From Spirochaetia bacterium (GTDB lineage Bacteria; Spirochaetota; Spirochaetia; DSM-2461), in assembly GCA_963668315.1 (NCBI GenBank), contig OY764216.1:3008001-3072000 (forward strand): a stretch of DNA of 64,000 nucleotides, given 5' to 3'. The notes beneath the pieces were generated by a model, which had not been told where the DNA came from, made no database searches, and was given only the letters and a program-made list of their open reading frames with translations. Shown piece after piece: positions 17,226 to 56,510 of this stretch (position 1 is its first letter; each line of letters opens with the position of its first letter). The position numbers were made by a program, and so were the translations under genes.

Positions 17226-17238
17226 GTCCGGAGGAACT

Positions 17239-17853: not shown

Positions 17854-17926
17854 AAGGATAATCTCTCATTTTCCCGCCTGGAATGACGAAGATATAACAT
17901 AGAACCGGAAAAACTCGGAGTGAATC

Positions 17927-18388
17927 ATGAAAAAAACCTCATTTTCTGCTATTTTATTCATCATTGCCTGGGCCTTGTTCGGCGAGACCGTCATGATCGA
18001 GACGGTGGATCGATTTGAATTCGGTGATCTGGAAGAGGAAACGCAGAATGTGATCATCCAGATGGAGACGGGTGTTATGGATGCGCTTTTCGACGGAGGC
18101 CATCTCTTTTTCAATATGTTTACGGTCAACGGAAGCCTGGATCCCGCCCTGGGACGCAAATCGCTGGATCAGGCGAAAAGAGCCGGTGCCGGCTGGTTCC
18201 TCCGCTTAAGACTTGCGGATACCGGAGTCGACTGGTGGTTTTATAAATTGTCCGATTTCGCCCTTCTGGGGGAAGGAGAGGTAAATCAGGATGACATAGC
18301 AGGAAGTGATGATATGACCCGGGAAGAATTTTTCTTTGAAGCCGGGAAAAGCGCCGGAATGGGAATCCTGGCCTTTATGAATCGCTAA
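17927..18388 (+). CDS. Hypothetical exported protein
   Basis: Sec-type signal peptide MKKTSFSAILFIIAWALFG; GGAG SD. Confidence 0.65.
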   Translation: MKKTSFSAILFIIAWALFGETVMIETVDRFEFGDLEEETQNVIIQMETGVMDALFDGGHLFFNMFTVNGSLDPALGRKSLDQAKRAGAGWFLRLRLADTGVDWWFYKLSDFALLGEGEVNQDDIAGSDDMTREEFFFEAGKSAGMGILAFMNR

Positions 18389-18405
18389 GAAGAGTAGGAG
18401 AGTAT

Positions 18406-19989: not shown

Positions 19990-19994
19990 CGCCT

Positions 19995-20726
19995 ATGCTG
20001 ACCGAGGAAGAAGCCGTCTCATTTTTGCAGGCCAGAGGCTGGGGGCTTATAACGCCCCAGACTCATCTCATCGACATGGAAGACGATTTCAAGGCCATAT
20101 GGAAGGATATTTCATCCTATACGCTGATCTCCGTGGAAAGGGGATATGCCATCTGTCAGGCCCTTGAGTACCTCGAGAAGAGAGGTATCGGAGGGGACAT
20201 CGTCGAGTGCGGCGTCTGGAAAGGGGGCGCCTGTATGCTGGCGGCCCGCCTGATCCAGGAACGGGGATATATCAAGCGTAAGATCTGGCTTTACGATACC
20301 TTTGAGGGGATGACGGAACCGACCGGGGAAGATATTATTGCCGCCAGCGGCCAGCCTGTTTCCGAAAGGAATCCTAAGGGATGGTGGGCCGTCACCCGGG
20401 AAGAGGTGGCTGGGAATCTGGCCGGAACCGGATACGACGCCGGTTTGATTGAACTGGTGAAAGGGGACGTTTGCGAAACCCTGGAACAGCGTATTCCCTC
20501 TTCCCCTGTCGCTCTTCTCAGACTGGATACGGACTGGTATGAATCTACGAAGAAAGAGATGGACGTGCTTTTTCCCAGGCTGATGCAAGGGGGAGTCCTT
20601 CTCCTGGACGATTACGGTCATTTCCGGGGTGCCGCCAAGGGAGTGGACGAATACTTCCGCAGAAGGGAGATCGTTCCCCTACTGCAGCGTGTTGATTATA
20701 CCGGGAGACTTTATATCAAGGAGTAG
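19995..20726 (+). CDS. TylF/MycF/NovP family O-methyltransferase
   Basis: GDIVECGVWKG, YDTFEGM, LRLDTDWYES, DDYG. Confidence 0.9.
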   Translation: MLTEEEAVSFLQARGWGLITPQTHLIDMEDDFKAIWKDISSYTLISVERGYAICQALEYLEKRGIGGDIVECGVWKGGACMLAARLIQERGYIKRKIWLYDTFEGMTEPTGEDIIAASGQPVSERNPKGWWAVTREEVAGNLAGTGYDAGLIELVKGDVCETLEQRIPSSPVALLRLDTDWYESTKKEMDVLFPRLMQGGVLLLDDYGHFRGAAKGVDEYFRRREIVPLLQRVDYTGRLYIKE

Positions 20727-21218
20727 CTGATCTATCACCTTGAAAAAACCTTCCGATGTAAGATCGGGATAAATCCCTTCCGACGATCCTCTTAGCAGAA
20801 AATTGTGATCCGCAAGGAGTATGGTGGGGTAGTTCATCACCCCCCAGCGGTCGGCGGAACGGTTCTCCCTGTCCTTGTAATCCTCTTCGGAAGGGGACAC
20901 CGTAATGATTGCAAACGGGGCTCCGGCATAGTGTTCCGAAAGTTCTGCCAGATCCTCTTTCAAATCGTTTTCAAAGGGATCGCCCCCGGAAAGAAAGATA
21001 ATGAGCATTATCTGACGGGAAGAGCCGTTAACGGACACCGATTCTCCCGATGGCGAGATGAGCCGTCCCGGAATAAGCGGCTGGGGCTGGGGAAAATAAT
21101 GAAATCCCAGAAGCTCAAGCCGGGAGATATTATCTCTATAGGCGGGACTGTCCGCTTCTGCATAAACCATAAAAGAGGCCAGCAATAGATAAATTACGAT
21201 TAAAATAGGGCGGTTCAT
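20679..21218 (-). CDS. Exported TlpA/thioredoxin-fold-like protein lacking CxxC
   Basis: Signal peptide, SGESVSV...IMLIIF...WGVMNYPTILLAD thioredoxin-like pattern; no Cys in the protein. Confidence 0.5.
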   Translation of the reverse strand: MNRPILIVIYLLLASFMVYAEADSPAYRDNISRLELLGFHYFPQPQPLIPGRLISPSGESVSVNGSSRQIMLIIFLSGGDPFENDLKEDLAELSEHYAGAPFAIITVSPSEEDYKDRENRSADRWGVMNYPTILLADHNFLLRGSSEGIYPDLTSEGFFKVIDQLLLDIKSPGIINTLQ

Positions 21219-21225
21219 AGAAGTA

Positions 21226-21254
21226 ATAATACCAAAAAAAAGGATTTTTTGCAA
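21226..21254 (-). promoter_or_regulatory. Promoter of the TlpA-like gene (leaderless geometry)
   Basis: TTGCAA-N17-TATTAT, 7 nt before ATG 21218. Confidence 0.55.
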
Positions 21255-21303
21255 AAAAAGTATTTTAATAATCAGTGGGTAACGGTATAATTCTCACGTT
21301 GTT

Positions 21304-22413
21304 ATGTGGATATTAATCATTCTATTGATTATGGTAACCGCCTTTTTACTGCTGAACGGTTCAACGGGAAGTGCGAAAAGCTTTCAGATCGTTCAGTTTT
21401 ATTCAAAAGGCAAAGACGCCGGCTTCAAGTGGAGCGAGATCTCTCTGCTCTGGAAAGCGGCTGTTCTCGCCGATGTTGACGTCCCGTCAAAAATTTATTT
21501 TTCCCTCGACGAACTGGATAACTGCATAGATGTTATTACGCGGAAATATGCCGTACTGGATAAGAAGAGTCCCGGCGATCCCGTGATAAAGGAACTTGTG
21601 GGGAAGCTGTTCGATTACCGGAAGAAGGTTGAGTTCAGCAAGCCGCGGTATAAAAGGGGACTGAAGACGACGAGGGACATCCCTCTGAATCAGGTCATGA
21701 AAATACGCACTTCCGAAGCGGGAATCCATACCACCACCGTCTGCGGCAACACCGATACCTACGTGGTCATCAGCTATCCGAAGGGTGAGGCGGTTCCCAT
21801 GGGGTTTACCTGGCGGGGCAGGATCCTTAATTTCTATTTCTGGCGTGATAATGACGCGGGCTACTTTTTTCAGAGCAAACTGCTTGATTCCTACCGGGAT
21901 TCGGATAACAAGTACTTTCGTCTGGCCCATTCGGATTATCTTTTGAGAAGCCAGAAAAGAAAGTCGGTCAGGGCCGATGCCCAGTTCGCAGCCCAGATGT
22001 ACAGGCTTAAATCATCCGCCTCATTCACAAATGAGATCGAGACCAATCCGGGTCTGTTCTGCGTGGTCACCGACATATCCGAAGACGGCGCCGCCGTCAG
22101 GGTAGGGGGACGGGGTAAAAAGGGGATGTCCCTCAAGCTTCAGTTCAAGATAATGAATCAGCTGATCGTTATGAACGGGGTGGTTAAAAGTGTTGATTAC
22201 GATTTTGATAAGGATCAGTCCATCCTCCATATTGAGCTGATGCCCCTGGATGAGTCCAGCCGGTTTGCCGTACTCTCCTATGTTTACGATGTCGACAGGA
22301 GCCGGAAGAGAAAACAGATGGCCCTGGAGGAAAACAAGAGGGAACGTAAGGAGAAAATCGCCGGGGATATGCTGGATATAGAGGAGATCACGGCCGAGGA
22401 AGAATTGGAATAG
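21304..22413 (+). CDS. Membrane-anchored PilZ/YcgR-like (flagellar brake type) protein
   Basis: N-terminal TM, YcgR-N-like region (FWRDNDAGYFF), QKRKSVR and DISEDG c-di-GMP motifs. Confidence 0.8.
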   Translation: MWILIILLIMVTAFLLLNGSTGSAKSFQIVQFYSKGKDAGFKWSEISLLWKAAVLADVDVPSKIYFSLDELDNCIDVITRKYAVLDKKSPGDPVIKELVGKLFDYRKKVEFSKPRYKRGLKTTRDIPLNQVMKIRTSEAGIHTTTVCGNTDTYVVISYPKGEAVPMGFTWRGRILNFYFWRDNDAGYFFQSKLLDSYRDSDNKYFRLAHSDYLLRSQKRKSVRADAQFAAQMYRLKSSASFTNEIETNPGLFCVVTDISEDGAAVRVGGRGKKGMSLKLQFKIMNQLIVMNGVVKSVDYDFDKDQSILHIELMPLDESSRFAVLSYVYDVDRSRKRKQMALEENKRERKEKIAGDMLDIEEITAEEELE

Positions 22414-22471
22414 ACTGTTGTTTTTTCCGGTTTAATTCATTAAAATGTGAGAAATGACGAAAGGAGTCGAG

Positions 22472-23368
22472 ATGAACTTGATTAGGAAAATTTCACCGGT
22501 TTTCGCCGGTATGATGATTTTCGGAATGTTTTATTCCTGTGCCGGCAGTCCTGAAGAAACAGAGACGGTTCAGAAGGAAACCGGTATAGAGGTTACTGAA
22601 AAAAAAGAAACGGTTAAAGAAGCGACCTATGAATCCAGGATGGTGGATATATATAAGGTTTCCAAGGAAAGCTACTTTCTTGACGACGGTTCGGAGAACG
22701 GTTACAAGGAGTATGCTTATGACGAAAGGGGCTTTTTGATTGATATCGCCAATTACCGTGGTTCGGGAGAACTCCTTTTTGAAGAAAAATTCACTCTGAA
22801 CGAGAAAGGGCAGACCGTCAGGTCCGAACTGTATGACAGCGAGGGGCTCACTTCCTATACCGTTTATGCCTATGATGACGAGAATCAGCTCGTTTCGGAA
22901 GAGTATTATAATCACAGGGATGTTTTTCTTTCCGGTTCCCGCTATGACTACGATAACCGGGGGAGGAGGATTCTATGGGAGTCCTTCGACGATAAAAAGA
23001 CTCTCGTTCTTAAATCCGAATACATCTATAAGGGCGATGATCTCACGAAGATCGTGTTTATGACGCCCCTCAACGAAGACGACGGTTCCTATGATTATAC
23101 CTATGAACAGGGTAAGCTAATGAAAGAAGTCAGTATTAATGGAAGCGGAAAAGAGGAGCGGCGCACGGAGTATGAATATTCCGGCGATCAGATCGCCAAG
23201 GAGAAAATATTTCAGCTTGGCCGTCTTTCCCGTGTGAACGAACTGAACTATGACGGTTCGGGCAATATGGTCAATATGGTGACCTACAACCGGTCGCAGA
23301 AACTTCTCGGTCATACAGAATATGAATATATCATGTTCCAGAACGAAGAATCGGTTCTTGTAAATTAG
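22472..23368 (+). CDS. Lipoprotein with YD/RHS-like beta-hairpin repeats
   Basis: Lipobox FYSC; recurring YxYDxxG repeats (EYAYDERG, YAYDDEN, RYDYDNRG, LNYDGSGN); AAGGAG SD. Confidence 0.7.
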   Translation: MNLIRKISPVFAGMMIFGMFYSCAGSPEETETVQKETGIEVTEKKETVKEATYESRMVDIYKVSKESYFLDDGSENGYKEYAYDERGFLIDIANYRGSGELLFEEKFTLNEKGQTVRSELYDSEGLTSYTVYAYDDENQLVSEEYYNHRDVFLSGSRYDYDNRGRRILWESFDDKKTLVLKSEYIYKGDDLTKIVFMTPLNEDDGSYDYTYEQGKLMKEVSINGSGKEERRTEYEYSGDQIAKEKIFQLGRLSRVNELNYDGSGNMVNMVTYNRSQKLLGHTEYEYIMFQNEESVLVN

Positions 23369-29150: not shown

Positions 29151-30323
29151 ATGGATGATAAGCTTAAAGAATTATCAGAAATCGAGCTTTTTTCCGGTCT
29201 GTCAAAGGAAGATTTATCTTATGTTTCCGAGTTCTGCCTTACCAGAACATTCCGGAAAGGTAATGTCCTTTTTTATGAAGGCGAAGAAGCGGATTGCCTC
29301 TATGTGATTGTGGAAGGCCAGGTGGAAATATGGTCTGATTTCCGGGAAAAGGAGAGGGATCTTCTGGCAATCAGCAAGGAGAAGTGTATTGTCGGTGAGA
29401 TGGCCCTGATTGACAGTCTGCCGAGAAGCGCAACCCTGATTGCCGCCTCTGAAGTCCGGACCTATTACATAGACAGGGGCAGCTATGAGAAAATCATTCT
29501 CAATTGTCCCAGTATCGCTGTCATTCTTATGAAATCTCTATCTAAAATCGTACGGAACAGTAATCAGAGTTATGTTACGACCTTGAGAGAACAAAATAGG
29601 AAAATAGAAACCACCTATAAAGAACTGATTGCCACACAGGAGAAGCTTCATCAGGAAGAAAAGCTGGCCACCATTGGCCAGTTCTCTTCTATGATACTCC
29701 ATGATATACGAAATCCCGTTTCAGTAATAAAAAGCTATTCCGAACTTGCCCTTAAAAAATACGGGGCTGAAATGGATGATAATCTGATTAAGTACTTTTC
29801 CCATATTATAGGAGAGACCAAGAAGCTTAATTTTCTTGCCGCCGATCTGCTGGATTTTTCCAAAGGTCAGATTACCCTGAATTTTTCCATAATTGAGGTT
29901 ACTTCATTTATCAGAACAATTCTGAAAGATCAGATGCCGGCGCTAAATGCCAAGAGTATAAAAGTAAAACTTGACTGCCGCTATAAGGGCGTGGCGCTCA
30001 TCGATGGGGAAAGATTTGAAAGGGTGATTATTAATCTGATCACGAATGCCAGAAAAGCGGTTGCCCCGGGAGGTTCCATTGAGATTCAGACCTGGGAAGA
30101 TAAGGATATACTGCATATGGTCTTTCTGGATAATGGATCAGGAATGTCCCGGGAAACTCTGAACCATCTGTTTGAACCGTTCTATTCCAAAAGCGACAGG
30201 GGAACGGGACTGGGTATGATCATCATTAAAAATATCGTGGAAGTTCATGACGGTTCTGTTTCTGTCAAGAGCCGCGAGGGAGAAGGGACGAAGGTCCATC
30301 TTACTCTTCCTTTGACCCATTAG
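29151..30323 (+). CDS. Cytoplasmic cNMP-binding histidine kinase
   Basis: cNMP domain (LFYEGEEAD..GEMALIDSLPRSAT) + HisKA (ILHDIRNP) + HATPase (NLITNA, DNGSGM, GTGLGM). Confidence 0.9.
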   Translation: MDDKLKELSEIELFSGLSKEDLSYVSEFCLTRTFRKGNVLFYEGEEADCLYVIVEGQVEIWSDFREKERDLLAISKEKCIVGEMALIDSLPRSATLIAASEVRTYYIDRGSYEKIILNCPSIAVILMKSLSKIVRNSNQSYVTTLREQNRKIETTYKELIATQEKLHQEEKLATIGQFSSMILHDIRNPVSVIKSYSELALKKYGAEMDDNLIKYFSHIIGETKKLNFLAADLLDFSKGQITLNFSIIEVTSFIRTILKDQMPALNAKSIKVKLDCRYKGVALIDGERFERVIINLITNARKAVAPGGSIEIQTWEDKDILHMVFLDNGSGMSRETLNHLFEPFYSKSDRGTGLGMIIIKNIVEVHDGSVSVKSREGEGTKVHLTLPLTH

Positions 30324-32332: not shown

Positions 32333-33496
32333 TTATATTACGGGGTCGGGTACTTCATAGGTCCGCTGAAGGGGGGAGTAGAGGGAGCACCTGTCCATGA
32401 CATCGTCGAATTCCTTGACAAGAATATTGATGAAGTAAACCGTGTTATCCACCATATTGACCTGGAAATAGTAGGGTAGCTGCCCATAGGAAAAGGAGAG
32501 AGAACCGGAATAGGGAAACCATTCCTGTCCGCCCACGGGAATGTAATTATAGGAGTAATACATGACATTAACATCGGAGACGTCATTAAGAGCCACCGTG
32601 GAATAGACAATCTTGTAGCGCAGATCCGATGAAGCGGCCCGGCTGTCCGAGGCCTCTGAAAAACTCAGGTTCAGTACAAAATCCTGGGCTACCGCGGGAA
32701 TCCAGTCGGATCCCGTATCATCAACTGTTATGTCAGAGATTGCGGGAGCCGTGTAGTCGCAGAGAAAAGTATAAGGGGCGGAAGGCTGATTATAATATCC
32801 GGACGTTCCGGCTTCGCAGCTTCCTCCGTTGAGAGATAAGAAGTATTCCCCTTCAGACAGTGATCCGCTGGGATCGATGGAGAAAATCCTGTCTTCCATA
32901 CTTGGATATGTTATGGCGGCAAGTGGATAATTCGACGTGAAATCTTCGACAGTCAGTGTGGAATTGCTGATGAAATCGTTAAACTCCAGGGTTATGTAGG
33001 GAGTTGCAGTCTTGAAAATACGATAGGGTGATGTATTGATAGTATAGTCGGGAGAACCGTAAAAATGAGAGGTCAGCCCTCTGTTGAGATTGATCTCATA
33101 GGTCAGATCATAATAGGTATCTTCCGTTCCGGTATATCCGACAAAATCTTTGGTCAGAGTCATATTCTGAGAGGACTGCCAGTAGCGGTTGCTCAGGGTT
33201 ATATAATTGTAAAATGAAGTGCCCAGTCCCCGGTTGCTTACGGCGAAGGAGGCCGTATGGGGAGCGGTAAAATCCAGAGAGGGGGGGACGGTAAAGCTTA
33301 TTTTCTTATTGTCCCTGTCTATATTGCCGTAGGAATCTAAATAGAAAGCCGTATTATTGTAGCTCTCGAAGACAAAACTTTCGAAATCGAATACATATCC
33401 TGCTTCTTCCACCGGATCGTACCGGTTGAAAAAATCATCACAGGAAGCAAGAGCGACTAATAAGAATAATGAGGAAAACTTTTTAATTCTGTTCAT
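32333..33496 (-). CDS. Tyr-rich lipoprotein with tandem Ig/Fn3-like domains
   Basis: Lipobox ALASC; beta-rich segments KISFTVP, ITLEFNDFI, DYTAP...LSFSEASD...YFINILVKE. Confidence 0.65.
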   Translation of the reverse strand: MNRIKKFSSLFLLVALASCDDFFNRYDPVEEAGYVFDFESFVFESYNNTAFYLDSYGNIDRDNKKISFTVPPSLDFTAPHTASFAVSNRGLGTSFYNYITLSNRYWQSSQNMTLTKDFVGYTGTEDTYYDLTYEINLNRGLTSHFYGSPDYTINTSPYRIFKTATPYITLEFNDFISNSTLTVEDFTSNYPLAAITYPSMEDRIFSIDPSGSLSEGEYFLSLNGGSCEAGTSGYYNQPSAPYTFLCDYTAPAISDITVDDTGSDWIPAVAQDFVLNLSFSEASDSRAASSDLRYKIVYSTVALNDVSDVNVMYYSYNYIPVGGQEWFPYSGSLSFSYGQLPYYFQVNMVDNTVYFINILVKEFDDVMDRCSLYSPLQRTYEVPDPVI

Positions 33497-33587: not shown

Positions 33588-34961
33588 CTAAAACCGATAC
33601 CCCAGGCGCAGTGATATCTGAGTAATATCCACCTGTCCGTCCTGTATGATCCAAGTATCGTTTCTCTGACTCACTTCCACGAGGAGTCTATCATAATTAA
33701 TGACAAGCCCTCCGCCCCAGGTGAGGAGGGTTCCGGCCGTGGATATCCGCTCTCCCTCCACATGCATACCCATCCAGCGGGACCCCATCTGTGCTTCGGC
33801 AAAAAGATTGACGGGAAAGGGAAACCTGGTCCTTCCGTAGAGGCCCATAGTAACGGTTGTAAAGAAGTCCCCCCTGTCGTTGGGGGCAAGGAAAGCAACG
33901 CGGCCGGTCCAGCCGAGGAAGTTAATAAGGGGGAGATCCTTGTTGATATCGGCCCGTAGAACCGCTTCTATCTCATTAAAAGGGGTTAGTATACCGGCTC
34001 CTTCGGCGAAAGTAAAATTGGTAACCGACTGGTCGAAAACGGCATCCGCAAGGGGAAGGCCGATGAGAAGGTCGGTTCCCCAACGCAAATTTTCGTAATA
34101 GTCTTCATCCCTGATCTTCTGCGGATCCACAATGGTAAATGCACCGGTCAGAACCATCTCTTCCAGGGGCGGATTGATCAGAACCAGGTCGTAGGATCCC
34201 GCCTTAAGCCCGACAAGATTGAACCAGAGAATTATCTCATCCTCGCTGATATATTCGCTGATTGGAAGACGGTGACGCTGACCGTCCCTTTCAAGAAAGG
34301 CTACGATATCTTTGTCAAAATTGGAGCCCTTGAGAATCACCCGGGGATTCTGGGTGTCAAGCAAAGCGGTGCGGGGTTCCAGCTCCGTCACTCGGGGGGA
34401 TACTTTTTCCTTAAGGGTAATGCAGCGTTCTTTCACCGTTTCGCTGCCCGAAGGATTTATAATACGCAGATCGTACTGACCAGCGGCTAGATGTTCCGTT
34501 TCCAGAACAATTTCTATTGTATTATTCCCCTTTTTCTCATAGGCAAGATTTTCCGCCTTACCGTCCCTTTCCAGTCGGATGAGGGCGCCTTCCATTATAT
34601 CAGAGGTATGAACCGTCACTCTTTGAGAGCGCTCGCCCGCAAAGATGGTATGGGGAGGGACGTCGATGATGACCGGCTCCAGATCTTTTAATACGGTCAG
34701 GGTAATCCAGTCTGTCACGGCATCGGTTTTTTCGAATTTGTTCAGAAAGCTGATCCGGTATTCATATTCTCCCGGGGAGAGGTCCAGATAGATAAGGGGA
34801 TCGCTTATTCTTCTTTCAAAGAGGAGCCGGTTATCCTTTTTCAGTTCCAGAAGGAAGGTATGGCCCGGCAGGTCTTCCCACTCCAGCTTGATCCCCTCCT
34901 GTCCCGGGAGAGGGAAAATGAACAGAAGGAATATAAAAGGAAAGATGATCTTTCTTGCCAT
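33588..34961 (-). CDS. Fn3 + two IPT/TIG domains + C-terminal outer-membrane beta-barrel
   Basis: Signal peptide; LSPGEYEYRI; ILKGSNF...GSYDLVLINP IPT repeats; amphipathic strands ending ISLRLGYRF (beta-signal). Confidence 0.7.
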   Translation of the reverse strand: MARKIIFPFIFLLFIFPLPGQEGIKLEWEDLPGHTFLLELKKDNRLLFERRISDPLIYLDLSPGEYEYRISFLNKFEKTDAVTDWITLTVLKDLEPVIIDVPPHTIFAGERSQRVTVHTSDIMEGALIRLERDGKAENLAYEKKGNNTIEIVLETEHLAAGQYDLRIINPSGSETVKERCITLKEKVSPRVTELEPRTALLDTQNPRVILKGSNFDKDIVAFLERDGQRHRLPISEYISEDEIILWFNLVGLKAGSYDLVLINPPLEEMVLTGAFTIVDPQKIRDEDYYENLRWGTDLLIGLPLADAVFDQSVTNFTFAEGAGILTPFNEIEAVLRADINKDLPLINFLGWTGRVAFLAPNDRGDFFTTVTMGLYGRTRFPFPVNLFAEAQMGSRWMGMHVEGERISTAGTLLTWGGGLVINYDRLLVEVSQRNDTWIIQDGQVDITQISLRLGYRF

Positions 34962-36374
34962 CTATCCGTTCCATCCTAAGAGAAGATAGGGGGAAAAGGC
35001 GGTCATGGAGTGGGACTTGAAATGTGTCCAGTCTATGGAATAGCCCAGCTCATAGGTCATTTTTTTTCTGGTATATTGCAGCGCCGCTTCAATCCTGTTG
35101 GTAAAATCCAGAGAATTGACAACACGCCCCTTATTGAAAAAATAGAGGGAATAGGCCGATCCGAAACCGAGGGAGAGGAAGAGATTCACCGGGGTGCCCC
35201 AGTCGGAGAGATAAAAGAAGCTTCCGTCAAGGACTACTTGTGTCAGGGTAAGATAATCGGCAATGGCATCGCTGTACTGGGTATAATGGATCCCCGCGGC
35301 ATAACCCGATTGTCTAAGTAGGGGGAGAGTGTATATTCCGGAATTCTGGAATTTTCGTCTGCCATTCAGGGTGAACCCGAGAAACGAAGTCTTGAACAAT
35401 CGGTCGCTGTCCTTGTCCATGGGGGCGGACAGATGGTAGGCAAATCCGAAAAAGAGGGGAGAGGTTTCTCTTTTCATGCGGATCTGTTCCTCCTGGCTGA
35501 TGATTTTCTCTTCCAGGGCGAGATCTATTTCATTGGAAACCACACCGCCCTCGTTTTCAACGGAAATCCTGTATGTTCCCAGCGCCAGCTCCGACGGATC
35601 GAGGTAGAATGTTATTTCCTCCCCGTAAAAGGTCTCCATATTCTCATATCCGGCAGGGGAGGGCCCGTCTATGACAAGGCGGGCCCGGGAGGAGAAGTTT
35701 TCTCCCTTGATGAGAAATTTCCCGGGGCTGTCTCCCCTGTGGATGACGGAAGGAGAGATCGATTCTATGACAGGAAGACGGCGCTCCGTTATTTTTACGG
35801 CCCTTTCCTTGGCATATTCCTTATTGGAAGGATTGATAACAATCAGATCCCAGAGACCGATTTCATGAAGCATCTCTCCCTGAAAAACAACTTCAAGCTC
35901 CAGCCCTTCGCCAGAGGGGGCGCGGGATTCTTCATAGCCTCTTATTCTATCCTGACCTTTTACAAGGTAGAAACGGCACATTTCATCGAAATTTCTGCCC
36001 CTTATTTCCAGGGTGATGCTCTCTTCATCACTGTAGAAAAGATAAGGCGAGGACCCGTCTATGATGGGCTGGGGGTTGGGATAGACTTGGAGCGGGCTCC
36101 AGTCGCTGCGGGATGCCATTTTTTCGAATTTATTAAATACGGATATCCTGATGTTGTAGGTACCGGGATTCAGAAACAGAGGGAGGGAAGGTTCTTCCGT
36201 TCTGATGGAGTAGAGTATGACGCCACCCGCCTCTATCTCCACCAGATAATAACGGGCCCCCTCAACAGGGGCCCACTCCAGTAATTTCTCTTCCGCGGGA
36301 AACTCGGTGCTTTGCGCCGTAAGAACGAGGGAGGAGAAAAGGAAAAGCAGACAGACCGGTACTTTAGTCTGCAT
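34962..36374 (-). CDS. Paralog: Fn3 + two IPT/TIG domains + probable beta-barrel
   Basis: Shares NKFEK..DW and GxNF/LIVINP motifs with 33588..34961; C-terminal alternating strands ending PYLLLGWNG. Confidence 0.7.
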   Translation of the reverse strand: MQTKVPVCLLFLFSSLVLTAQSTEFPAEEKLLEWAPVEGARYYLVEIEAGGVILYSIRTEEPSLPLFLNPGTYNIRISVFNKFEKMASRSDWSPLQVYPNPQPIIDGSSPYLFYSDEESITLEIRGRNFDEMCRFYLVKGQDRIRGYEESRAPSGEGLELEVVFQGEMLHEIGLWDLIVINPSNKEYAKERAVKITERRLPVIESISPSVIHRGDSPGKFLIKGENFSSRARLVIDGPSPAGYENMETFYGEEITFYLDPSELALGTYRISVENEGGVVSNEIDLALEEKIISQEEQIRMKRETSPLFFGFAYHLSAPMDKDSDRLFKTSFLGFTLNGRRKFQNSGIYTLPLLRQSGYAAGIHYTQYSDAIADYLTLTQVVLDGSFFYLSDWGTPVNLFLSLGFGSAYSLYFFNKGRVVNSLDFTNRIEAALQYTRKKMTYELGYSIDWTHFKSHSMTAFSPYLLLGWNG

Positions 36375-39099
36375 ACTGTATTACCGGCGAAAGGATCACC
36401 GGAGCCTCTTCGATGGTATCCAGAGTGATGGAGAAAACGGTCCTTGTTTCGGGAGATGTCCGTACTATCCCGATATTTCCATAATCAATGACCGCTTTAA
36501 CGGTAAAGACGAACTGGCCCACGTCCAGTTTGGAAAGGTCCCTGAATACGAATTCTGTGCCGCGGTAATTATCCTGGAAAAAGATCCGGTTTCCCGACTG
36601 GTCATATAAAGAAAGGGTATATGTTGCTCCCTCTTCAACCTGTCCCCACCGGAATGTAAGGTCATCCTGATCGGACATATCGATTATCCCGTCCTCCGTG
36701 GGAGAGACCATCCTTACCGCATTCAGCGATGTAACCGGTTCAATGGTCATTTCCGACCTGCCCGCAGGGGACGTACGCCCGCGGCTGTCGATTCCGTTTA
36801 CTTCGATGACATAATCGTCCGGATAGAGATCGTCTATACGGTAGTAATTCTGCTTCGTTTCCCTCCTCATAAGCAGTGTCCCCGAATCCTTCTGTCTCAG
36901 GGTAAGGGAATAGTCGGGAAATCTGTAGGAGGAATCCCACCGGATCAACAGACCGTCCTGAAGAATTTCCAGCCGGTTTGCCGAGAACTGATCGGAAGGC
37001 GACGTGATCACTGGCGCCTGGTAATTGATGATCGAACCAATGGAAAAGGTGGACCGGGAAACAGCACTTGCCGCGGGAAACCCCTTTCCCTCGTCCTCCC
37101 TCAGGGATCTCAGCTCCATCCTGTAGTCTCCCTCCGATAGGAGGGACACATCAATGTCGTAGGATAGAATATCCGTGCCGGGGAGTGTAACCAGAGGGAC
37201 CGTTTCACCCTCTTTGAAAAGGGCTCCCTCATAGGCGATACTGTTAGCAATGTCACTCCATGATAATGTCAATTTTTCTTCTCCGATCACTTCAATAGTA
37301 CTGTCCGGACGGGGATATGTCAAATCGGGAGGCAGTAAGGGCTTTCTTACAGAGAAGGCTCTCCGTGTTCCCCCGAGAGCCACGCGGTCCTCTTCATCCA
37401 TGATATCGACCTGCCAGAGAAAATCGCCCTCTTCCCCGATATATTGGGTATTCTGAGGATGATCAAGGCGGCTGTTGGCAATAATTCTCTCGTTTCCATC
37501 GGTGATTTTCCAGAGTCTGAAACGGAAGTTCCCCCTCTCTGAAGAGTCCCATATAAAGGATATGTCCTCAGGGGAGAGGGTGATCGCTTCATCCGCTTCG
37601 GGGCTCAGAAGCTCAATGGTTTTGACCTTTTCCCTGTTTTGGAAGGTTCGTATTTCAGAGGAGTCAACCGGAACCGATCCATCGGTTAAGGGGATAATCC
37701 GCCAGTAATACGTTCCTTCCTCCAGCCCGCCTGCTGCGTCGTAATAATTCCTTGACGTATTTTCCCTGCGCAGAACCCCTTCCATGGAGGAATCAGCCGA
37801 GAGGATAAACTGATAAAGGGGAATCTCCGGGTCCCCTTTCCAGCTGAACCTGACACCCCTGGAAAAATCTTCGGGCGAAAGGGACGCCTCATTCTCGGGA
37901 GAAATCAGTTCGGGAGGCTGAAGCTCTTCCTGCCTGATGACCATAAGGATCCTGTCCTCCGTCGGGGAGGTTCTTCCGATGTTTTCAATTCCGTTGTACT
38001 GGGCCGTGACACGCCACCAGTAGGCACCTTCTGTCAGATCGTCGATTTTCATCTGGTTATACCGGGTTCTCCGGGATATGACAGGATTGGTCATATCCGA
38101 CATCAATCCCATTTCCAGTTCCCAGTATTCGGCATTTTCCGCTCCCTGCCATGAGAAGGTGGGGGAAGGAACCTGATCCCGGTAGGTTAATTCCGTTTCA
38201 TTCAGAGGAAGGAGTGCTTTCAGAGGAAGATTCTCCATAATTCTGATTTTACCGGTCGAGCTGAACCTGCTGTCCTCTTCTGTTCCGACACGCCAGAAGT
38301 AATCGCCCGGAAGAAGGTCGAGATTATACTCCTGTTCCTCAAGATCATCGGCCTGAAAAACGATCCTTTCAAAATCCGTGTCCAGTGCTATCCAGAGGGA
38401 TCGTGTTTCCGCCGGCTGAGGCTCAATCCAGGCGAAGCGCATCTTCTGGGTTTCTCCGAAAGTCACCCAGCTGCTGTTGTTGGGCGGAGTGGAGAGGATG
38501 AAGCTCATCCTGTCCACGCTGGTTTCCCCTTCCGGCGTCAGGCGGAACTGTTCGTTGGCCTCAATTTTCTCCTCACCCCGTGACACGTCGCCGGCGAGCA
38601 CTGACATATTGAAGATGCCCTTATCATCGGTTGAGAGGGTTATTTCCGAAGCGTTACCCAGTATGATGGGCTGGGGATTCTCCTCACGGAGATTAATAAG
38701 CCTAAGGGGTTCGCTTCTCTCCTCCGTCGAAAGGGCGCTGATGGTTCCGTCGAAATAAATGGTATTGTCCATGAGACTCAGAACAATGCGGGAGCTGTTC
38801 TCCAGCGAAATCTCCGTACCGTCAATAAGATTCATCATGATCGAGGAAAAGGCGTCGGAACTGATGGTATCCCCGTCAAAAAGATCATCCTGGTTATTGA
38901 GATTGTAGGTGTAATCGTCTCCGGAAATCTGTCTTTTGGGATAATAGGACAGATCGGAAACCGTGCCAATCGGTTCTCCGGCCCCCCGAATTTTCGATGA
39001 GATAATTTCCAGATACCGGGTTCCGGCGAAATAGAATACCGAGAGAAGGAGGGCGAGGGCAAGAAGATCTTTGAAAAGGGTTTTAATCCATAATCTCAT
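36364..39099 (-). CDS. FecR-domain protein with seven Ig/Fn3-like repeats
   Basis: N-terminal TM; LFDGDTISS...LIDGTEISLENSSRIVL FecR motif; seven PxLxSP...FxW...GxYxWRV-type repeats. Confidence 0.8.
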   Translation of the reverse strand: MRLWIKTLFKDLLALALLLSVFYFAGTRYLEIISSKIRGAGEPIGTVSDLSYYPKRQISGDDYTYNLNNQDDLFDGDTISSDAFSSIMMNLIDGTEISLENSSRIVLSLMDNTIYFDGTISALSTEERSEPLRLINLREENPQPIILGNASEITLSTDDKGIFNMSVLAGDVSRGEEKIEANEQFRLTPEGETSVDRMSFILSTPPNNSSWVTFGETQKMRFAWIEPQPAETRSLWIALDTDFERIVFQADDLEEQEYNLDLLPGDYFWRVGTEEDSRFSSTGKIRIMENLPLKALLPLNETELTYRDQVPSPTFSWQGAENAEYWELEMGLMSDMTNPVISRRTRYNQMKIDDLTEGAYWWRVTAQYNGIENIGRTSPTEDRILMVIRQEELQPPELISPENEASLSPEDFSRGVRFSWKGDPEIPLYQFILSADSSMEGVLRRENTSRNYYDAAGGLEEGTYYWRIIPLTDGSVPVDSSEIRTFQNREKVKTIELLSPEADEAITLSPEDISFIWDSSERGNFRFRLWKITDGNERIIANSRLDHPQNTQYIGEEGDFLWQVDIMDEEDRVALGGTRRAFSVRKPLLPPDLTYPRPDSTIEVIGEEKLTLSWSDIANSIAYEGALFKEGETVPLVTLPGTDILSYDIDVSLLSEGDYRMELRSLREDEGKGFPAASAVSRSTFSIGSIINYQAPVITSPSDQFSANRLEILQDGLLIRWDSSYRFPDYSLTLRQKDSGTLLMRRETKQNYYRIDDLYPDDYVIEVNGIDSRGRTSPAGRSEMTIEPVTSLNAVRMVSPTEDGIIDMSDQDDLTFRWGQVEEGATYTLSLYDQSGNRIFFQDNYRGTEFVFRDLSKLDVGQFVFTVKAVIDYGNIGIVRTSPETRTVFSITLDTIEEAPVILSPVIQYAD

Positions 39100-41929
39100 A
39101 TTTTACTTCTTTCTCATCCACATCTTTCTTCAGAACGTCGCTGAAATCTCCTTCAATTCCCACATAGGAACGCATTTCATCCAGATCTTTCGGTCTGGCC
39201 GGATTATCCATCCGTCCGAGAACGGCGTAGATCTGCTGGGGTTCGCTCTTTCCCTTCACCTTGATCTTGTTCATGGGAACCACATCGTAGATGCCTTTCA
39301 CCTGATTATACGTGTCCGTGGATATGAGAATGTCCGTGCCCATAGGTTTGTTCAAAGGTTCGATACGGGAAGCCAGGTTTACCGCGTCGCCGATAACCGT
39401 ATATTCCATTCTGTCCTCCGAGCCTATCTGACCGGATACCACAGGGCCGGAATTGATGCCGCAGCCGATTTTGATAATGGGTTTTTTGTCTCCGCCCCGT
39501 CCTTTGTTGAACCTGATCAGGGCTTCCCTCATGGCAAGGGCGCAGTTGACGCAGTTTTCCGGATCATTCCCATGGGATTTGGGGACGCCCCACAGGCCCA
39601 TGATGGCATCACCGATATACTTGTCCACATGGCCCATGGTGTCGTTGACGCATTTGACCATTTCCGTCATATATTCATTCAGGAACTCCACCACTTCACC
39701 GGGCTCGAGCTTTTCCGAAATGGCTGTGAATGAGCGGATATCGGAGAAGAAAATCGTGGCTTCCTTTGTTTCTCCCCCCAGTTTCAGCTCTCCTTTCGCG
39801 GCCATCTCGGCCACTTCCTTGTTCACAAAGCGGCCGAAGGCGTCCTTCATTCTCTCCCGTTCCTGAAGACCGTGTCCCATGTCGATGAACGCCTGGGTCA
39901 GAACTCCCGTCTCATCCCGGTTGCGTACTTTCAGCTTCAGTTCGTACTGCCCGTTTTCAATCAGTTTCGTGGCTACCATGAGACGGGCGAGGGGGAGGGA
40001 GATCGTCTTGGAAAAGAAGTAGATGATGAGGATCGTCAGAGAAAGTATCATGATCATCAGGTAAAGATTCTGCCTGAGAATATCGTTGATGGGGCCGAAA
40101 ACGGCAGACCTTTTTATTTCGGAGACGAAAAAGAGGTCCCAGTCCTTGATTATGGTGAAAGCTCCCAGCATCTGCTCCCCCGGTTCCGGCTCTGTTTCCT
40201 CAGTACCGATTATCGTCTGCTGATAGCTTATCTGCTGGTTGGAAGTTGAGCCCGACTCTCTCACATAGGAGAGAATGGGATGGTTTTCATAATCCCCGGG
40301 AAGACAGGATGTCACGAGGGTCTTGTCCGGATGTCCGATCATCTCTCCCATACCGTTCAGAACGAAAATGGTCCTGCTGCCTGAGCTGTTGATGATATCG
40401 TTGAGAAGTTCCGCCGTCTGAACAATGATGATCAGGGGTTTCTGCCTGTTATCGCTCTCATCCCAGTAGGTCAGGATTACGCCCGTCACCGGTTCGGTAT
40501 TTCTCGTGTCCGTCAGAAAAAAGGAGGGGTTGAATGTCCTCCGGTAGTTCTGATCCCCCTGCCAGGCCTCTTCTGTCATGGACGCATAATTCTCCTCAAG
40601 AACACTGCTGATATAGTCCTTGCTGAAGTATCCCGGAGAGTTGTAGACCACATCGCTGGAAAGGAGTTCGAAGTAAAGAATATAGGGATAATCGTTTATC
40701 AGGGTATCTTCCAGATTCGCCCTGTTATTGTTGAGAAGGACTCTGAGTGTCTCCCGAAGGCTGTTGAAACTGTTTTTTGTATTGGTGGAGAGCAGGTCGG
40801 CGACGGTCAGGCTGTTCTGCTCTATCTCGCGGGAGAGGGTCTTCTCAAAGAGGGAGAAGGATATTACCGACATGGAGCTCATGGCCAGAACGATCACGGT
40901 GGAAATGATGAGTATAAGTTTGAAGCCGATGGAGAAGCGCACCCCCAGCTTTCGGCTTTTTGGCTTTTTCAGATCAAGTTCTTCGGGCAGTTCCTCGTCC
41001 TTGCTGTTCTGTTCGGTGAGTCTGTCGATTTTCTTAATCAGATCGGGAGGCATAATGGCCACCTCCCGGATTATTTCTTTTATCTCGACCTTCGCAGGGC
41101 CCTGGCTGACCGGCAAAGCCGCCGGTTCTTCCGGACGTCTGGACGGTTTCTTCAGAATCTTCAGAATGCTTCCCCTGATCTTCAGTTTCTCAAGAAGTCT
41201 GCTTCCTTCTTCTTGTCCGGAATAGAGAAAATACAAAGGCTGCCGGACCTGATCGTCCCGGACCGATTCGTAGGGAAGATCCAGGGGGCCCATAAGGGGA
41301 ATCTCACCCTTTGCCGTCAGGGAGGATAGACTGTCTATTGTCTGCAGAAGATCGTCCTGTCTGTTCAGATCAAGGTAGAAGAGTATGCGCCACTCATCAG
41401 GCCTTGCCTTCTCGAGATAATGGCGGGGAATACGCAGGGCGTGGGTGAAATCCTCATCCTTTCCGATGGAAAGGGTTTTGAGATCCCACTGAAGTTCCGT
41501 ATCAATCAGCCGCTTGTGGAAAAGCCTCGTCATGGCGGATATATCAAAATCGATCGACTCTCCGGTGAGAACGGACTCCCTGACATTGACGAAGAGTCCT
41601 TCGGCTTTTTTTTCTTCCAGCACCCGGAAGAGGCGGACGATATGTTCGATAAGGCGGTTGAGAAGGCGGTAATCTTCCGTTGAAATCGGGGAATTCCTCT
41701 CGGCCAGTTCCGAGGTGAAAGTGAGTCCCAGCTGCGCCATGGAGTTCAGGGGGGACAAGCCCATAAAAGTCCCCAGAAAAGAAAGAATGCGGAATTCCTC
41801 TTTCAGCGAAGCGATATCAGGTCTTTTGGCTGTTTTTAATTTTTTGTGTTCCATAAGAAGAGAACGTACATGGTGACCCGCTTCTCTCTTCAGGGATAAA
41901 GGTTGTTTGCTGCTCTTTTCTCTTTCCAC
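39083..41929 (-). CDS. Membrane class III adenylate cyclase (CheA-like N-terminus, TM, Cache-like periplasmic domain, TM, HAMP, cyclase)
   Basis: FFSDIRSFT, VDKYIGDAIM, EYTVIGDAVNLASRIE, VKGKSEP; HAMP NRDETGVLTQAF. Confidence 0.92.
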   Translation of the reverse strand: MEREKSSKQPLSLKREAGHHVRSLLMEHKKLKTAKRPDIASLKEEFRILSFLGTFMGLSPLNSMAQLGLTFTSELAERNSPISTEDYRLLNRLIEHIVRLFRVLEEKKAEGLFVNVRESVLTGESIDFDISAMTRLFHKRLIDTELQWDLKTLSIGKDEDFTHALRIPRHYLEKARPDEWRILFYLDLNRQDDLLQTIDSLSSLTAKGEIPLMGPLDLPYESVRDDQVRQPLYFLYSGQEEGSRLLEKLKIRGSILKILKKPSRRPEEPAALPVSQGPAKVEIKEIIREVAIMPPDLIKKIDRLTEQNSKDEELPEELDLKKPKSRKLGVRFSIGFKLILIISTVIVLAMSSMSVISFSLFEKTLSREIEQNSLTVADLLSTNTKNSFNSLRETLRVLLNNNRANLEDTLINDYPYILYFELLSSDVVYNSPGYFSKDYISSVLEENYASMTEEAWQGDQNYRRTFNPSFFLTDTRNTEPVTGVILTYWDESDNRQKPLIIIVQTAELLNDIINSSGSRTIFVLNGMGEMIGHPDKTLVTSCLPGDYENHPILSYVRESGSTSNQQISYQQTIIGTEETEPEPGEQMLGAFTIIKDWDLFFVSEIKRSAVFGPINDILRQNLYLMIMILSLTILIIYFFSKTISLPLARLMVATKLIENGQYELKLKVRNRDETGVLTQAFIDMGHGLQERERMKDAFGRFVNKEVAEMAAKGELKLGGETKEATIFFSDIRSFTAISEKLEPGEVVEFLNEYMTEMVKCVNDTMGHVDKYIGDAIMGLWGVPKSHGNDPENCVNCALAMREALIRFNKGRGGDKKPIIKIGCGINSGPVVSGQIGSEDRMEYTVIGDAVNLASRIEPLNKPMGTDILISTDTYNQVKGIYDVVPMNKIKVKGKSEPQQIYAVLGRMDNPARPKDLDEMRSYVGIEGDFSDVLKKDVDEKEVKYEIMD

Positions 41930-42128: not shown

Positions 42129-43916
42129 ATGAATGCCAAAGAACTTCGAGAGAAATACATAACCTTTTTTACAGAGCGGGGACATAAGGAAATTTCCGGA
42201 AAATCCCTGATTCCCGAAAACGATCCCACCGTGCTGTTTACCACGGCGGGTATGCATCCGCTGGTCCCCTATCTGCTGGGACAGCCTCATCCGGCGGGAA
42301 AGAGGCTTGTCGACTATCAGAAGTGCATCAGGACTCAGGATATAGATGCCGTCGGTGATCCTTCCCATCTCACTTTTTTTGAAATGCTGGGAAACTGGTC
42401 TCTGGGCGACTATTTCAAAAAAGAGTCTATTGCCATGAGTTATGAATTTCTCACATCACCCGATTATCTCGGCGCTGATCGGGAGAAACTTTCCGTAACG
42501 GTATTCGAAGGGGACGACGAAGTGCCCGCCGATGAGGAATCCATCGGTTACTGGAGGGAATGCGGAATCCCCGATGAGCGGATCTACCGCCTGCCCCGGG
42601 AAGATAACTGGTGGGGGCCTGCGGGTACCACCGGTCCCTGCGGTCCCGATTCAGAGATGTTTCTGGATACGGGGCTGGAACCGTGCGGTCCCGACTGTAA
42701 ACCCGGCTGTCACTGCGGGAAATATTTTGAAGTCTGGAATAACGTTTTCATGCAGTACAACAAGCAGGAGGACGGTTCCTATAAGAAGCTCGATGCTCCC
42801 TGCGTCGATACGGGAATGGGATTGGAAAGGACCATTACCATGCTTTTAGGAAAGAAATCGGTTTACGAAACGGAATTTTTCATCCCTATTATAGAAAAAG
42901 TGGAATCCCTGACGGGGAAAAAGTACGGCCAGTCGGAAGATGTGGATATGTCCATACGCATCATATCCGACCATATCAAGGCATCCTGCATGATCCTGGG
43001 AGACGAGAAGGGCGTCAGCCCTTCCAATGTCGGACAGGGTTACGTTCTGCGGAGACTGCTCAGAAGGGCTATCCGCCATGGAAAGAAGCTCGGTATCGAA
43101 GACAATTTCCTGGTGGAGCTCTCGGAAATCGTTCTGGCCATGTACGAGGGTGTCTATAAGGAACTCAGGGAAAATGAAGAGAGGATCAAAGAAGAGCTGG
43201 AGCGTGAGGAAAATCAGTTCCGTACCACTCTGGTCAAGGGAGAGAAGGAGTTTGAAAAACTGCTTCCCAATCTTCTGAAAAATCCTAAAAAGATGGTAAG
43301 CGGAAAAGTGGCTTTCAAGCTTTACGATACCTACGGGTTTCCCGTGGAGCTTACCGAGGACCTGGCCGGTGAAAACGGGATGACCGTCGACAGGGAAGGG
43401 TTCGAGGAGGCTTTCAAAAAGCATCAGGAAGCATCCAAAAAGGGTGCGGACAAAGCCTTTAAAGGCGGACTGGCCGATCATTCCGTCATGACGACAAGGT
43501 ACCATACGGCGACTCACCTTCTGCACGAGGCTTTGAGACTCGTTCTGGGAGAGCATGTGGCTCAGAAGGGTTCCAATCTCAACTCGGAGAGACTTCGGTT
43601 TGACTTCTCCCATCCCGATCCCATGACGCCGGAACAGATTCAGCAGGTAGAAGATATGGTAAATGAGAAAATCCAGGCGGCTTTGCCTGTTACCATGAAA
43701 GTCATGACTCTCGACGAAGCCAGAAATCTGAATGCCAGAGCTCTGTTCTCCGGTAAATATGATGAGCAGGTTAAGGTCTACTTCATGGGTGATTTTTCCG
43801 TTGAAGTATGCGGCGGACCCCATGTGGAAAATACTTCCGAACTGGGCAGCTTTAAAATTCAGAAAGAGCAGTCCTCATCAAGGGGAGTGCGGCGGATCAG
43901 AGCAGTACTGGAATAG
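42129..43916 (+). CDS. alaS: Alanine-tRNA ligase (short form without C-Ala domain)
   Basis: LFTTAGM, HLTFFEMLGNWSLGDYFK, DTGMGLER, LYDTYGFP, HTATH, RLRFDFSH, CGGPHV, GVRRIRA. Confidence 0.97.
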   Translation: MNAKELREKYITFFTERGHKEISGKSLIPENDPTVLFTTAGMHPLVPYLLGQPHPAGKRLVDYQKCIRTQDIDAVGDPSHLTFFEMLGNWSLGDYFKKESIAMSYEFLTSPDYLGADREKLSVTVFEGDDEVPADEESIGYWRECGIPDERIYRLPREDNWWGPAGTTGPCGPDSEMFLDTGLEPCGPDCKPGCHCGKYFEVWNNVFMQYNKQEDGSYKKLDAPCVDTGMGLERTITMLLGKKSVYETEFFIPIIEKVESLTGKKYGQSEDVDMSIRIISDHIKASCMILGDEKGVSPSNVGQGYVLRRLLRRAIRHGKKLGIEDNFLVELSEIVLAMYEGVYKELRENEERIKEELEREENQFRTTLVKGEKEFEKLLPNLLKNPKKMVSGKVAFKLYDTYGFPVELTEDLAGENGMTVDREGFEEAFKKHQEASKKGADKAFKGGLADHSVMTTRYHTATHLLHEALRLVLGEHVAQKGSNLNSERLRFDFSHPDPMTPEQIQQVEDMVNEKIQAALPVTMKVMTLDEARNLNARALFSGKYDEQVKVYFMGDFSVEVCGGPHVENTSELGSFKIQKEQSSSRGVRRIRAVLE

Positions 43917-55208: not shown

Positions 55209-56510
55209 TCAGTAAAGGGGAGTCCAGGAGCCGTCTTTTGCGTCGATCCTGATCTCCCGGTCTTGCGGCCCTTCATCAATGAGGCGGCCGCTGTAGTATT
55301 TCCTGCCTGCAACGAGCGCCATGCGGCCTTTAAGGGAGAGATTCTCCGGGACCCGGGGCTCCTTCTCTGCCGTTTCATCTCCCTGGTAGTGATTGAGAAG
55401 GACACGCGAGACATAATCGGCTATTTTTTTCCTGTCCTCTTCCCTGACGCCGTAGCGATAGAGAAAATTCCGGGCGAATCGATTAATTCTCTCATAGGAG
55501 AGTTCCCATCCGTTCCCTTCCGGAAATTCTGCTTCCAGTCTGCCTTCCCGCAGGGTTATGTCAGGACCCTCGCAGATAATATCCCGATACGCAAAGGGCC
55601 AGGATATGAGTGAGCCCGTTTCCACATCGAAAAGACTGTGCCCCTCCTGGGTCTGAATGGCTATATCCTGTGAATGGTAATGGCCCGTGAACACGACATT
55701 GACGTCGTATTTCATGAGGAGAGATAGAAGTTCCTTGCGATTAATAAGTCTCATGCCTTTATCCCTATCCTGACCGGGATAGTGTTCCAGGAGGGAGTGG
55801 TGCATGAATAGCAGAACAGATAGGCCCCTGAGCCGGCTTTCACTGAGAGTCTCCTCCAGCCATGTGAGCGTTTCTTCATGCAAATAACCAGGACCTGATC
55901 CGTATCGGCAGCTGTCCAGGCCGATGAGAAGGGTTTTTTCATTGACTTCCACGGCGTAACTCAGTGAATAGATATCCCGGGAAAGGGCTTCATCATAACC
56001 GAAGGGTCGATAGAGGCTGAGAAACTCCCCCGCGCTCAATGATTCCGTATCTATCGCCTTATCTCCGCGGAAGGCAAGGGGGTAGGGATTGTCAATATCA
56101 TGATTGCCCGGTATGGCATAAACATCTACTCCCTCTGCTTCCAGGGAGGAAAAATACCGGGATAGAACCATATGACTCTCTTTTTCGCCATTGTTGGTCA
56201 GATCTCCGGGAACGATGATAAAATCAGGCTTTTCCCTGAGCACCTCGTCTTTGAAATCCGCCAGAATAGAATCGCCATATTCCGTTAAATTCCCTTTTTT
56301 ATATAGCATATGCCTTTGAAAGGCCGATCCGCTGTCATAAAGAGCGGGAGCAAGAAAATGGATATCGCTGATGACGAAAAAACGAGAATTGCCATAGTCC
56401 GCTGATCTTTTAGGGTATTGATCGCTTACTGATGAAGTACGGCATCCTGCCAGTAAAAAGAAAGGAAAGGTCAGAATCAACAGATTTGACATAATCTTCA
56501 TAAACGACAT
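55209..56510 (-). CDS. Calcineurin-like metallophosphoesterase lipoprotein
   Basis: Lipobox LAGC; SDIH, GDLT, PGNHD, MHH, TGHYH; start may be 56501. Confidence 0.85.
   Translation of the reverse strand: MSFMKIMSNLLILTFPFFLLAGCRTSSVSDQYPKRSADYGNSRFFVISDIHFLAPALYDSGSAFQRHMLYKKGNLTEYGDSILADFKDEVLREKPDFIIVPGDLTNNGEKESHMVLSRYFSSLEAEGVDVYAIPGNHDIDNPYPLAFRGDKAIDTESLSAGEFLSLYRPFGYDEALSRDIYSLSYAVEVNEKTLLIGLDSCRYGSGPGYLHEETLTWLEETLSESRLRGLSVLLFMHHSLLEHYPGQDRDKGMRLINRKELLSLLMKYDVNVVFTGHYHSQDIAIQTQEGHSLFDVETGSLISWPFAYRDIICEGPDITLREGRLEAEFPEGNGWELSYERINRFARNFLYRYGVREEDRKKIADYVSRVLLNHYQGDETAEKEPRVPENLSLKGRMALVAGRKYYSGRLIDEGPQDREIRIDAKDGSWTPLY

Follow-up and report, generated by a model that had tools for sequence, protein, structure and literature searches.

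A probable envelope-spanning module is encoded in the window

The window analyzed here is a 64,000-nt stretch of Spirochaetia bacterium contig OY764216.1, and four open reading frames (ORFs) at positions 33588-41929, all on the minus strand, code for a receptor adenylate cyclase, an inner-membrane rod made of a FecR domain and fibronectin type III (Fn3) repeats, and two predicted outer-membrane proteins, OMP1 and OMP2 (Table 1). We propose, with a probability of roughly 0.6, that these genes build one envelope-spanning signalling chain from the barrel to the cyclase. The barrel is likely joined to the rod because the C-terminal tail of the rod would complete the first Fn3 domain of the barrel protein, which lacks its strand A, and this modelled strand-complemented joint between an inner-membrane and an outer-membrane protein is the novel element of the proposal. 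The evidence read from the sequence is the coupling of the genes, their conservation, the catalytic residues of the cyclase, the missing strand, the conservation of the tail, and natural fusions of rod and barrel. The cyclase and rod genes overlap by 17 bp, the rod and OMP1 genes overlap by 11 bp, and OMP2 follows OMP1 with no gap. An earlier reading of this DNA, referred to here as the original prediction, had described these four coupled ORFs and their overlaps in the same way, and the four genes are presumably co-transcribed.

The rod tail is predicted to complete an unfinished Fn3 domain

The folds and the rod-barrel joint were taken from structure models. In the model of the rod, with a predicted local distance difference test score (pLDDT) of 89.0, an N-terminal helix leads into a FecR region rich in beta structure. 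This is followed by seven Fn3 repeats, the number that had been claimed for its immunoglobulin (Ig)/Fn3 repeats, and by a tail whose pLDDT drops to less than 50 and which is disordered when the rod is modelled alone. Each repeat of the rod opens with a Pro-rich strand A and the tail resembles one extra strand A, while the first Fn3 domain of the barrel proteins starts at the strand after A. When placed on the repeat profile, all 44 N-terminal domains of barrel proteins began at position 11 or later and 41 of them at 16 or later; of the internal repeats of held-out rods, 136 of 140 began before position 10.

Rod residues 790-911 modelled together with OMP1 residues 21-198 gave a complex score of 0.69 compared to 0.20 for the best control, at least 93% of the contacts were common to the runs, and the pLDDT of the partners was at least 88. 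The link from rod to barrel in the original prediction is thus supported, as a prediction, by the complex model. In the benchmark of this score, 116 of 157 solved pairs and 2 of 215 mismatched pairs attained the mark, a comparison that is only roughly applicable because the alignments for the rod-OMP1 complex were self-supplied. In the model, tail residues 900-903 lie against W34 of OMP1, and L855 and L858 of the rod lie against F83. On the rod side L855 is found in 71/80, the position of L858 is L, F or Y in 80/80, and that of Y909 is Y or F in 78/80; on the barrel side W34 is invariant (45/45) and position 83 is F, L or Y in 43/45. A loop motif that was defined post hoc from the last repeat is present there in 36 of 80 cases, and in none of the 80 of each other repeat. 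Among 60 loci, a barrel gene lies within two ORFs of 43 of the 49 tailed rods as against none of the 11 rods that end in a propeller. The latter are paralogous, have the same cyclase alongside and a PQQ-type propeller at the end, preceded by a PEGA domain in those scanned, and they may be a single lineage.

In chaperone-usher pili an incomplete Ig-like fold is finished by donor-strand complementation, and the likeness to the module is that the strand comes from another chain. Here, in contrast, the domain is Fn3, the strand is A, the predicted donor is C-terminal, and a single joint would connect the inner and the outer membrane.

Table 1. Features of the module, of related loci and of the rest of the window
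Feature	Position	Strand	Remarks
Receptor adenylate cyclase	39083-41929	-	948 amino acids (aa); N-terminal region 1-325, transmembrane helix 1 (TM1) 338-356, dCache-like periplasmic region, TM2, HAMP 638-690, catalytic domain 721-901
Cytoplasmic N-terminal region of cyclase	40955-41929	-	325 aa, no family
Class III cyclase domain	39227-39769	-	D730, K770, D774, T844, N851, R855
FecR/Fn3 rod	36364-39099	-	911 aa
FecR-type periplasmic domain	38509-38967	-	Residues 45-197; assigned at family level
Seven Fn3 repeats	36421-38508	-	Residues 198-893; conserved loop L855, L858 in last repeat
Rod tail	36367-36420	-	Residues 894-911; predicted donor strand
OMP1	34962-36374	-	470 aa; signal peptide, strand-A-less Fn3 (28-100), two IPT/TIG domains, barrel 304-470
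OMP2	33588-34961	-	457 aa; strand-A-less Fn3 start, docking loop as in OMP1, barrel-type C-terminus ending in Phe
Propeller-ended rods (n = 11)			L057, L062, L065, L069, L070, L075, L077, L083, L085, L088, L090
Rod-barrel fusions with internal amphipathic stretch and AxA			L095, L107, L111-L113, L115, L117, L120, L128, L130; P0123, P0167
Lipoprotein-like ORF	32333-33496	-	387 aa, without family, 91 bp past OMP2
Cyclic nucleotide monophosphate (cNMP)-binding domain fused to histidine kinase	29151-30323	+	About 3 kb from module; candidate cyclic AMP (cAMP) effector
Short alanyl-tRNA synthetase	42129-43916	+	595 aa, divergent from module
ORF run	14116-23368	+	975, 527, 369 and 304 aa; none with a Pfam match at E 1e-8

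OMP1 and OMP2 are predicted exported paralogues with barrel-type C-termini

The model of OMP1 (pLDDT 90.6) has a signal helix, an Fn3 domain that starts at residue 31, a pair of IPT domains, and at the C-terminus eight antiparallel strands that match solved barrels of the OmpA/NspA/OmpW fold, NspA with a Z of 18.9 and a root-mean-square deviation (rmsd) of 2.3 over 151 residues and OmpW with a Z of 17.0 and an rmsd of 2.2 over 153 residues. The C-terminal region of OMP2 matched the barrel profile with an E of 1e-23, OMP2 itself being among the rows from which that profile was built. Thus, of the two beta-barrel C-termini that had been claimed, that of OMP1 is borne out by an eight-stranded model, while the evidence for that of OMP2 is a profile match. 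That the two proteins are paralogous was confirmed by 24% identity over 427 aa (E 3e-24), and both begin with signal-like stretches, in keeping with the export that had been claimed. Against NF047756, the LIC11435 family, they scored 83.6 and 69.1 bits where the cut-off is 380, and over the N-terminal half only. Domains that are N-terminal to an even-stranded barrel face the periplasm; therefore, the Fn3 and IPT domains of OMP1 and OMP2 should face the periplasm and extend the rod, and they would not be the surface receptors that the original prediction made of them.

Six orthologous loci, drawn from three genera of the family to which the window belongs, have tandem Fn3-barrel genes; a fourth genus has three such loci in which the second member of the tandem is barrel-only. 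The duplication of the barrel gene is a family-level trait and not peculiar to the window genome. It bears on a different reading of the module, in which FecR acts by itself as a co-receptor or inhibitor of the cyclase with an Fn3 stalk that binds a periplasmic cue such as peptidoglycan, endoflagella or misfolded protein, and the barrel only positions it. The outer loops of the OMP1 barrel are short in the model, as this reading would have it, and both stalkless short FecR proteins and propeller-tipped rods adjoin the same cyclase. However, most loci keep the barrel partner as well as the two sides of the interface, and the retention of tandem barrel paralogues across genera suggests specific inputs at the barrel. 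We consider this reading quite unlikely.

The receptor and FecR form the invariant core

A search of 401 genomes of the phylum with the rod profile at E 0.001 matched 225 genomes, a count that includes weak generic Fn3 matches; by family the matches were 75/75 in f20, 36/50 in f2, 0/38 in f25 and 0/8 in f5. Sixty rod loci were fetched from the 150 best listed matches, selected for diversity and contig size, and in all 60 there was a cyclase match in the ORF directly upstream of the rod. A less biased sample consisted of every eighth genome (n = 50), which was searched with profiles of the receptor periplasm and of FecR. The receptor profile matched 44 times and the FecR profile 43 times at E 1e-32 or better; a further 36 matches to FecR were weaker (9e-15 or worse) and were discarded. 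All but one of the receptors (43/44) were directly before a FecR rod and every strong FecR match (43/43) came after a receptor, the paired matches being 927-1229 bases apart and in the same 23 of the 50 genomes. The conserved gene order, the absence of which would have refuted the original prediction, is thus supported, for the cyclase and the FecR rod by the 60 loci and these pairs, and for the barrel by its presence near 43 of the 49 tailed rods.

The gene set is also found where single members have been studied before. At locus L099 there is a homologous trio of 614, 671 and 374 aa in the same order, for which the sources name the Treponema pallidum adenylate cyclase, TP_0484 and Tp0483; the alignment of Tp0483 with the OMP profile covers its full length (99.2%, E 5.8e-20). 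The order TP0485-TP0484-Tp0483, which the original prediction had brought up as TP0485-TP0483, is therefore correct. The Leptospira loci fetched, the L. interrogans genes LIC11437-LIC11436-LIC11435 not being among them, likewise have a cyclase, a FecR protein and a LIC11435-family protein. These T. pallidum and Leptospira sets differ from the module in having shorter rods (671-705 aa) and one partner. In the spirochaete locus L145 (4201-8991, plus strand) the cyclase and the rod are fused in frame into 1596 aa, maybe by a single indel, and a barrel gene follows. Across the loci the receptor and FecR are the invariant core and the barrel is a replaceable part, since the far end may be a barrel, DUF5683, a PQQ-type propeller, or there may be no stalk.

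Rod and barrel are fused in some lineages

Two database proteins carry the rod and the barrel in one chain. In a second phylum, reached through genome G401, which carries a relative, matches were found in 21 of 131 genomes, and a receptor of the TM-periplasm-HAMP type was in the stretch of 20 of 26 loci, as judged with a receptor profile that includes HAMP and is therefore looser. Of the 17 receptors scanned there, 13 have SpoIIE as the output and 4 a cyclase. In 12 of 19 long rod proteins, several of the 12 being close kin, the tail is followed by a short amphipathic stretch with AxA and then, contig permitting, by a strand-A-less Fn3 domain. The internal AxA may be a signal-peptidase site that releases the barrel half, which would still be bound through the tail, and these would be polyproteins. 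A scan of metagenomes for the rod-barrel fusion gave four weak loci. It is conceivable, and we put it forward tentatively, that all these genes belong to a widespread undescribed class of transducers in which a split Fn3 domain locks the barrel to an Fn3 rod whose length varies, and in which the rod, serving as a ruler or a sensor of load, switches a dCache receptor with an interchangeable cyclase or PP2C-type phosphatase output; that some lineages make a rod-barrel polyprotein that is cut at the internal signal-peptidase site is part of this same tentative reading.

The receptor has ATP-type catalytic residues and FecR as its neighbor

The motifs SDIRSF, DKYIGD, YTVIG and VNLASR are at cyclase residues 729, 769, 843 and 850, respectively, PF00211 (Guanylate_cyc) was matched with 93.7 bits (cut-off 21.9), and Pfam also gives HAMP. 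The six catalytic positions in Table 1, which comprise the metal Asp pair, the Lys and Thr/Asp for ATP, and Asn/Arg, are complete in all 59 full-length rows, these being the window and 58 loci after two short or split ORFs were excluded. The catalytic motifs and the ATP-type K/T pair named in the original prediction are thus in place, and the sequence supports residues of the ATP type; cAMP is the predicted product. Two hydrophobic helices bracket the periplasmic region. Here the Cache label holds at the level of the family, dCache_1 being matched by 24 of 59 receptor periplasms and CHASE2 by none, but not for the window's own cyclase, in which Pfam and NCBIfam found no Cache match. Relatives of the N-terminal region of the cyclase were found in only 7 loci, all of the window's own family, and a structure-atlas search with it gave scores of at most 0.82, which is chance level. 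Other loci have different N-terminal extensions, one of them GGDEF-like (L059).

The rod has a single membrane helix at its N-terminus that begins within the first 10 residues. The FecR label also stands at family level, where PF04773 (FecR) was matched by 53 of 55 homologue N-termini, but the window's own rod had no Pfam or NCBIfam match to FecR and is not among the rows matched. There was also a weak match to structure chain 6ovk_R (E 0.015), which we take to be PupR. FecR proteins self-cleave at a Gly-Thr site; no pair of columns has Gly-Thr in more than 26 of the 55 FecR rows, a count in which the position of the known site is approximate. Foldseek searches with whole models were dominated by generic Ig arrays and were uninformative.

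Could the cyclase sense a small periplasmic ligand on its own while the rod and barrel merely staple the membranes together, with the operon serving joint expression or localization? The rod-barrel joint makes sense without any role in signalling, small ligands are what dCache domains usually bind, and the receptor periplasm has a weak similarity to the chemoreceptors PctB and PctC. However, the pair that is never separated is the receptor and FecR and not the rod and the barrel, and the receptor retains the rod even in the 13 proteins that have a SpoIIE phosphatase as output, which supports the signalling chain. In addition, the RxWY motif, which we take to be an amino-acid-binding motif, is missing from 59 of 59 receptor periplasms and this fits a protein input. 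A structural tether of this kind is unlikely.

In the proposed signalling chain the barrel of OMP1 or OMP2 would be the distal anchor, followed by the IPT spacers in the periplasm and by the joint in which the rod tail would fill the unfinished Fn3 domain. The seven Fn3 repeats would then lead to the FecR domain beside the inner membrane, which may set the activity of the neighboring cyclase through its dCache domain, and the signal would pass through the TM and HAMP regions to the class III cyclase, and by cAMP to cNMP-binding proteins. The likeliest input would be where the distal anchor lies or whether it is occupied, so that the chain would respond to the distance of the outer membrane, to load or to binding at the barrel, and not to a small ligand of dCache. 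The periplasmic topology, the FecR-dCache contact, the co-transcription, the cAMP output and the input are the steps that we infer.

Several observations weigh against this chain. The C-terminus of OMP1 is without a terminal aromatic residue, the complex model covers OMP1 alone of the two barrel proteins, and strand complementation in Ig folds is frequent among solved structures, so that the complex score may partly reflect memory of the fold. For six of the 49 tailed rods the stretch that was fetched contains no barrel gene, L147 and L148 have FecR without an Fn3 rod, and the partners of the Leptospira type gave no match to the barrel profile (six rows, excluded from the profile), the one scanned having DUF5683. 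The linkage counts are partly circular, since paired loci were the source of the profiles and rows came from three of the 50 genomes, and they are not independent because the genomes are related. In the literature we found no experiment on any member of the module as a signalling unit. Finally, LIC11436 is described in a review as a fibronectin-binding predicted surface protein that raises the binding of the saprophyte (PMC11350617), which would conflict with a periplasmic rod if LIC11436 is the orthologue, and Tp0483 is reported to bind fibronectin, its outer-membrane location being disputed (PMC10118025).

These two reports of fibronectin binding are what would favor an adhesin role for the rod and barrel proteins at the cell surface, with the Fn3 array exposed to the exterior. 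The rod, however, begins with a long membrane helix, and on inspection, made without a signal-peptide predictor, it showed neither an AxA site nor a secretion barrel of its own. Moreover, free-living-type and non-spirochaete genomes also carry the gene set, and a study noted in the review on Tp0483 (PMC10118025) found neither an outer-membrane location nor protection for this protein. Display as adhesins is very improbable.

Comparison with known systems

The nearest known system is NsrA of Sinorhizobium meliloti with the CHASE2 cyclases CyaK, CyaD1 and CyaD2, where an outer-membrane barrel is required for cAMP signalling (PMC7529298, PMC13001267). Both systems have a barrel and an inner-membrane receptor cyclase with a cAMP output, which is predicted here. 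However, the sensor there is CHASE2 and here it is dCache-HAMP, NsrA has about 600 residues whereas the barrel here is eight-stranded, and here FecR is on a separate inner-membrane rod that would be joined through a split Fn3 domain. A cluster in Campylobacterota has a CHASE2 cyclase, a phosphodiesterase, a FecR-domain protein of the outer membrane and a TPR protein (PMC9239204); FecR and an adenylate cyclase are thus clustered without a sigma factor as in the module, but FecR is on the outer-membrane protein there, with no Fn3 rod and no dCache.

With FecA-FecR-FecI and PupB-PupR the module shares an inner-membrane protein that crosses the membrane once and has a FecR-type domain in the periplasm (53/55 homologues). 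Unlike in FecA-FecR-FecI, the rod is almost without a cytoplasmic N-terminal (anti-sigma) domain, and there is no extracytoplasmic function (ECF) sigma factor and no TonB-dependent receptor. No TonB-dependent receptor was found among 86 flanking genes at E 1e-12, the partner being modelled as an eight-stranded barrel, and no sigma domain was found in these 86 genes, which are part of the neighbors, at a strict cut-off; within this scope the absence of both that had been noted from the window holds. The module would function like NsrA-CyaK but belongs neither there nor to FecA-FecR-FecI.

The literature documents NsrA-CyaK and the cluster of CHASE2 cyclase and FecR, and treats the genes individually, as adhesins or as antigens (PMC9239204, PMC11350617, PMC10118025, PMC6685089, PMC13719327, PMC5498481, PMC7529298, PMC3798601, PMC13181057, PMC13001267), which is how the T. 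pallidum and Leptospira sets have been studied, one gene at a time; LIC11437 is annotated as a cyclase in PMC3798601. The literature searched, mostly outside subscription journals, gave no account of the trio as a unit or of the split domain, and supplements such as proteome-wide structure tables may call Tp0483 a barrel. Our reading proposes an input for the T. pallidum receptor cyclase TP0485 and for the several paralogous cyclases per genome in the family that contains Leptospira (rod in 75/75 sampled genomes), and it offers a residue-level, testable explanation for Tp0483, the structure of which a 2023 review calls little known. On the broader, tentative reading of these genes as a class of transducers, Tp0483 and LIC11436 would belong to a cAMP signalling apparatus instead of being simple adhesins. 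The strand-complemented joint, along with the fused form with an internal signal-peptidase-like site, would be a new design of trans-periplasmic signalling.

Neighboring genes

The window genome has a single copy of the module, three further cyclase domains, and 15 cNMP-binding matches. A scan for promoters and terminators, by consensus only, showed a promoter-like site just 3' of OMP2 and therefore the lipoprotein-like ORF downstream was excluded from the module; its homologues at the same place are found only in L131 and L132. In other loci the position 3' of the barrel genes is often taken by Ig-like or Flg_new repeat proteins. A linked effector gene was considered and rejected because the 86 flanking genes scanned were varied and none was a fixed flank; the fusion of a cNMP-binding domain and a histidine kinase in the window had no counterpart among them. 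Two FlaA genes are also among the neighbors in the window and, like the names of the homologues, they point to a spirochaete. An ORF listed at 55209-56510 contains stops when translated on the plus strand. The remaining neighbors in Table 1 are the divergent alanyl-tRNA synthetase and the ORF run.

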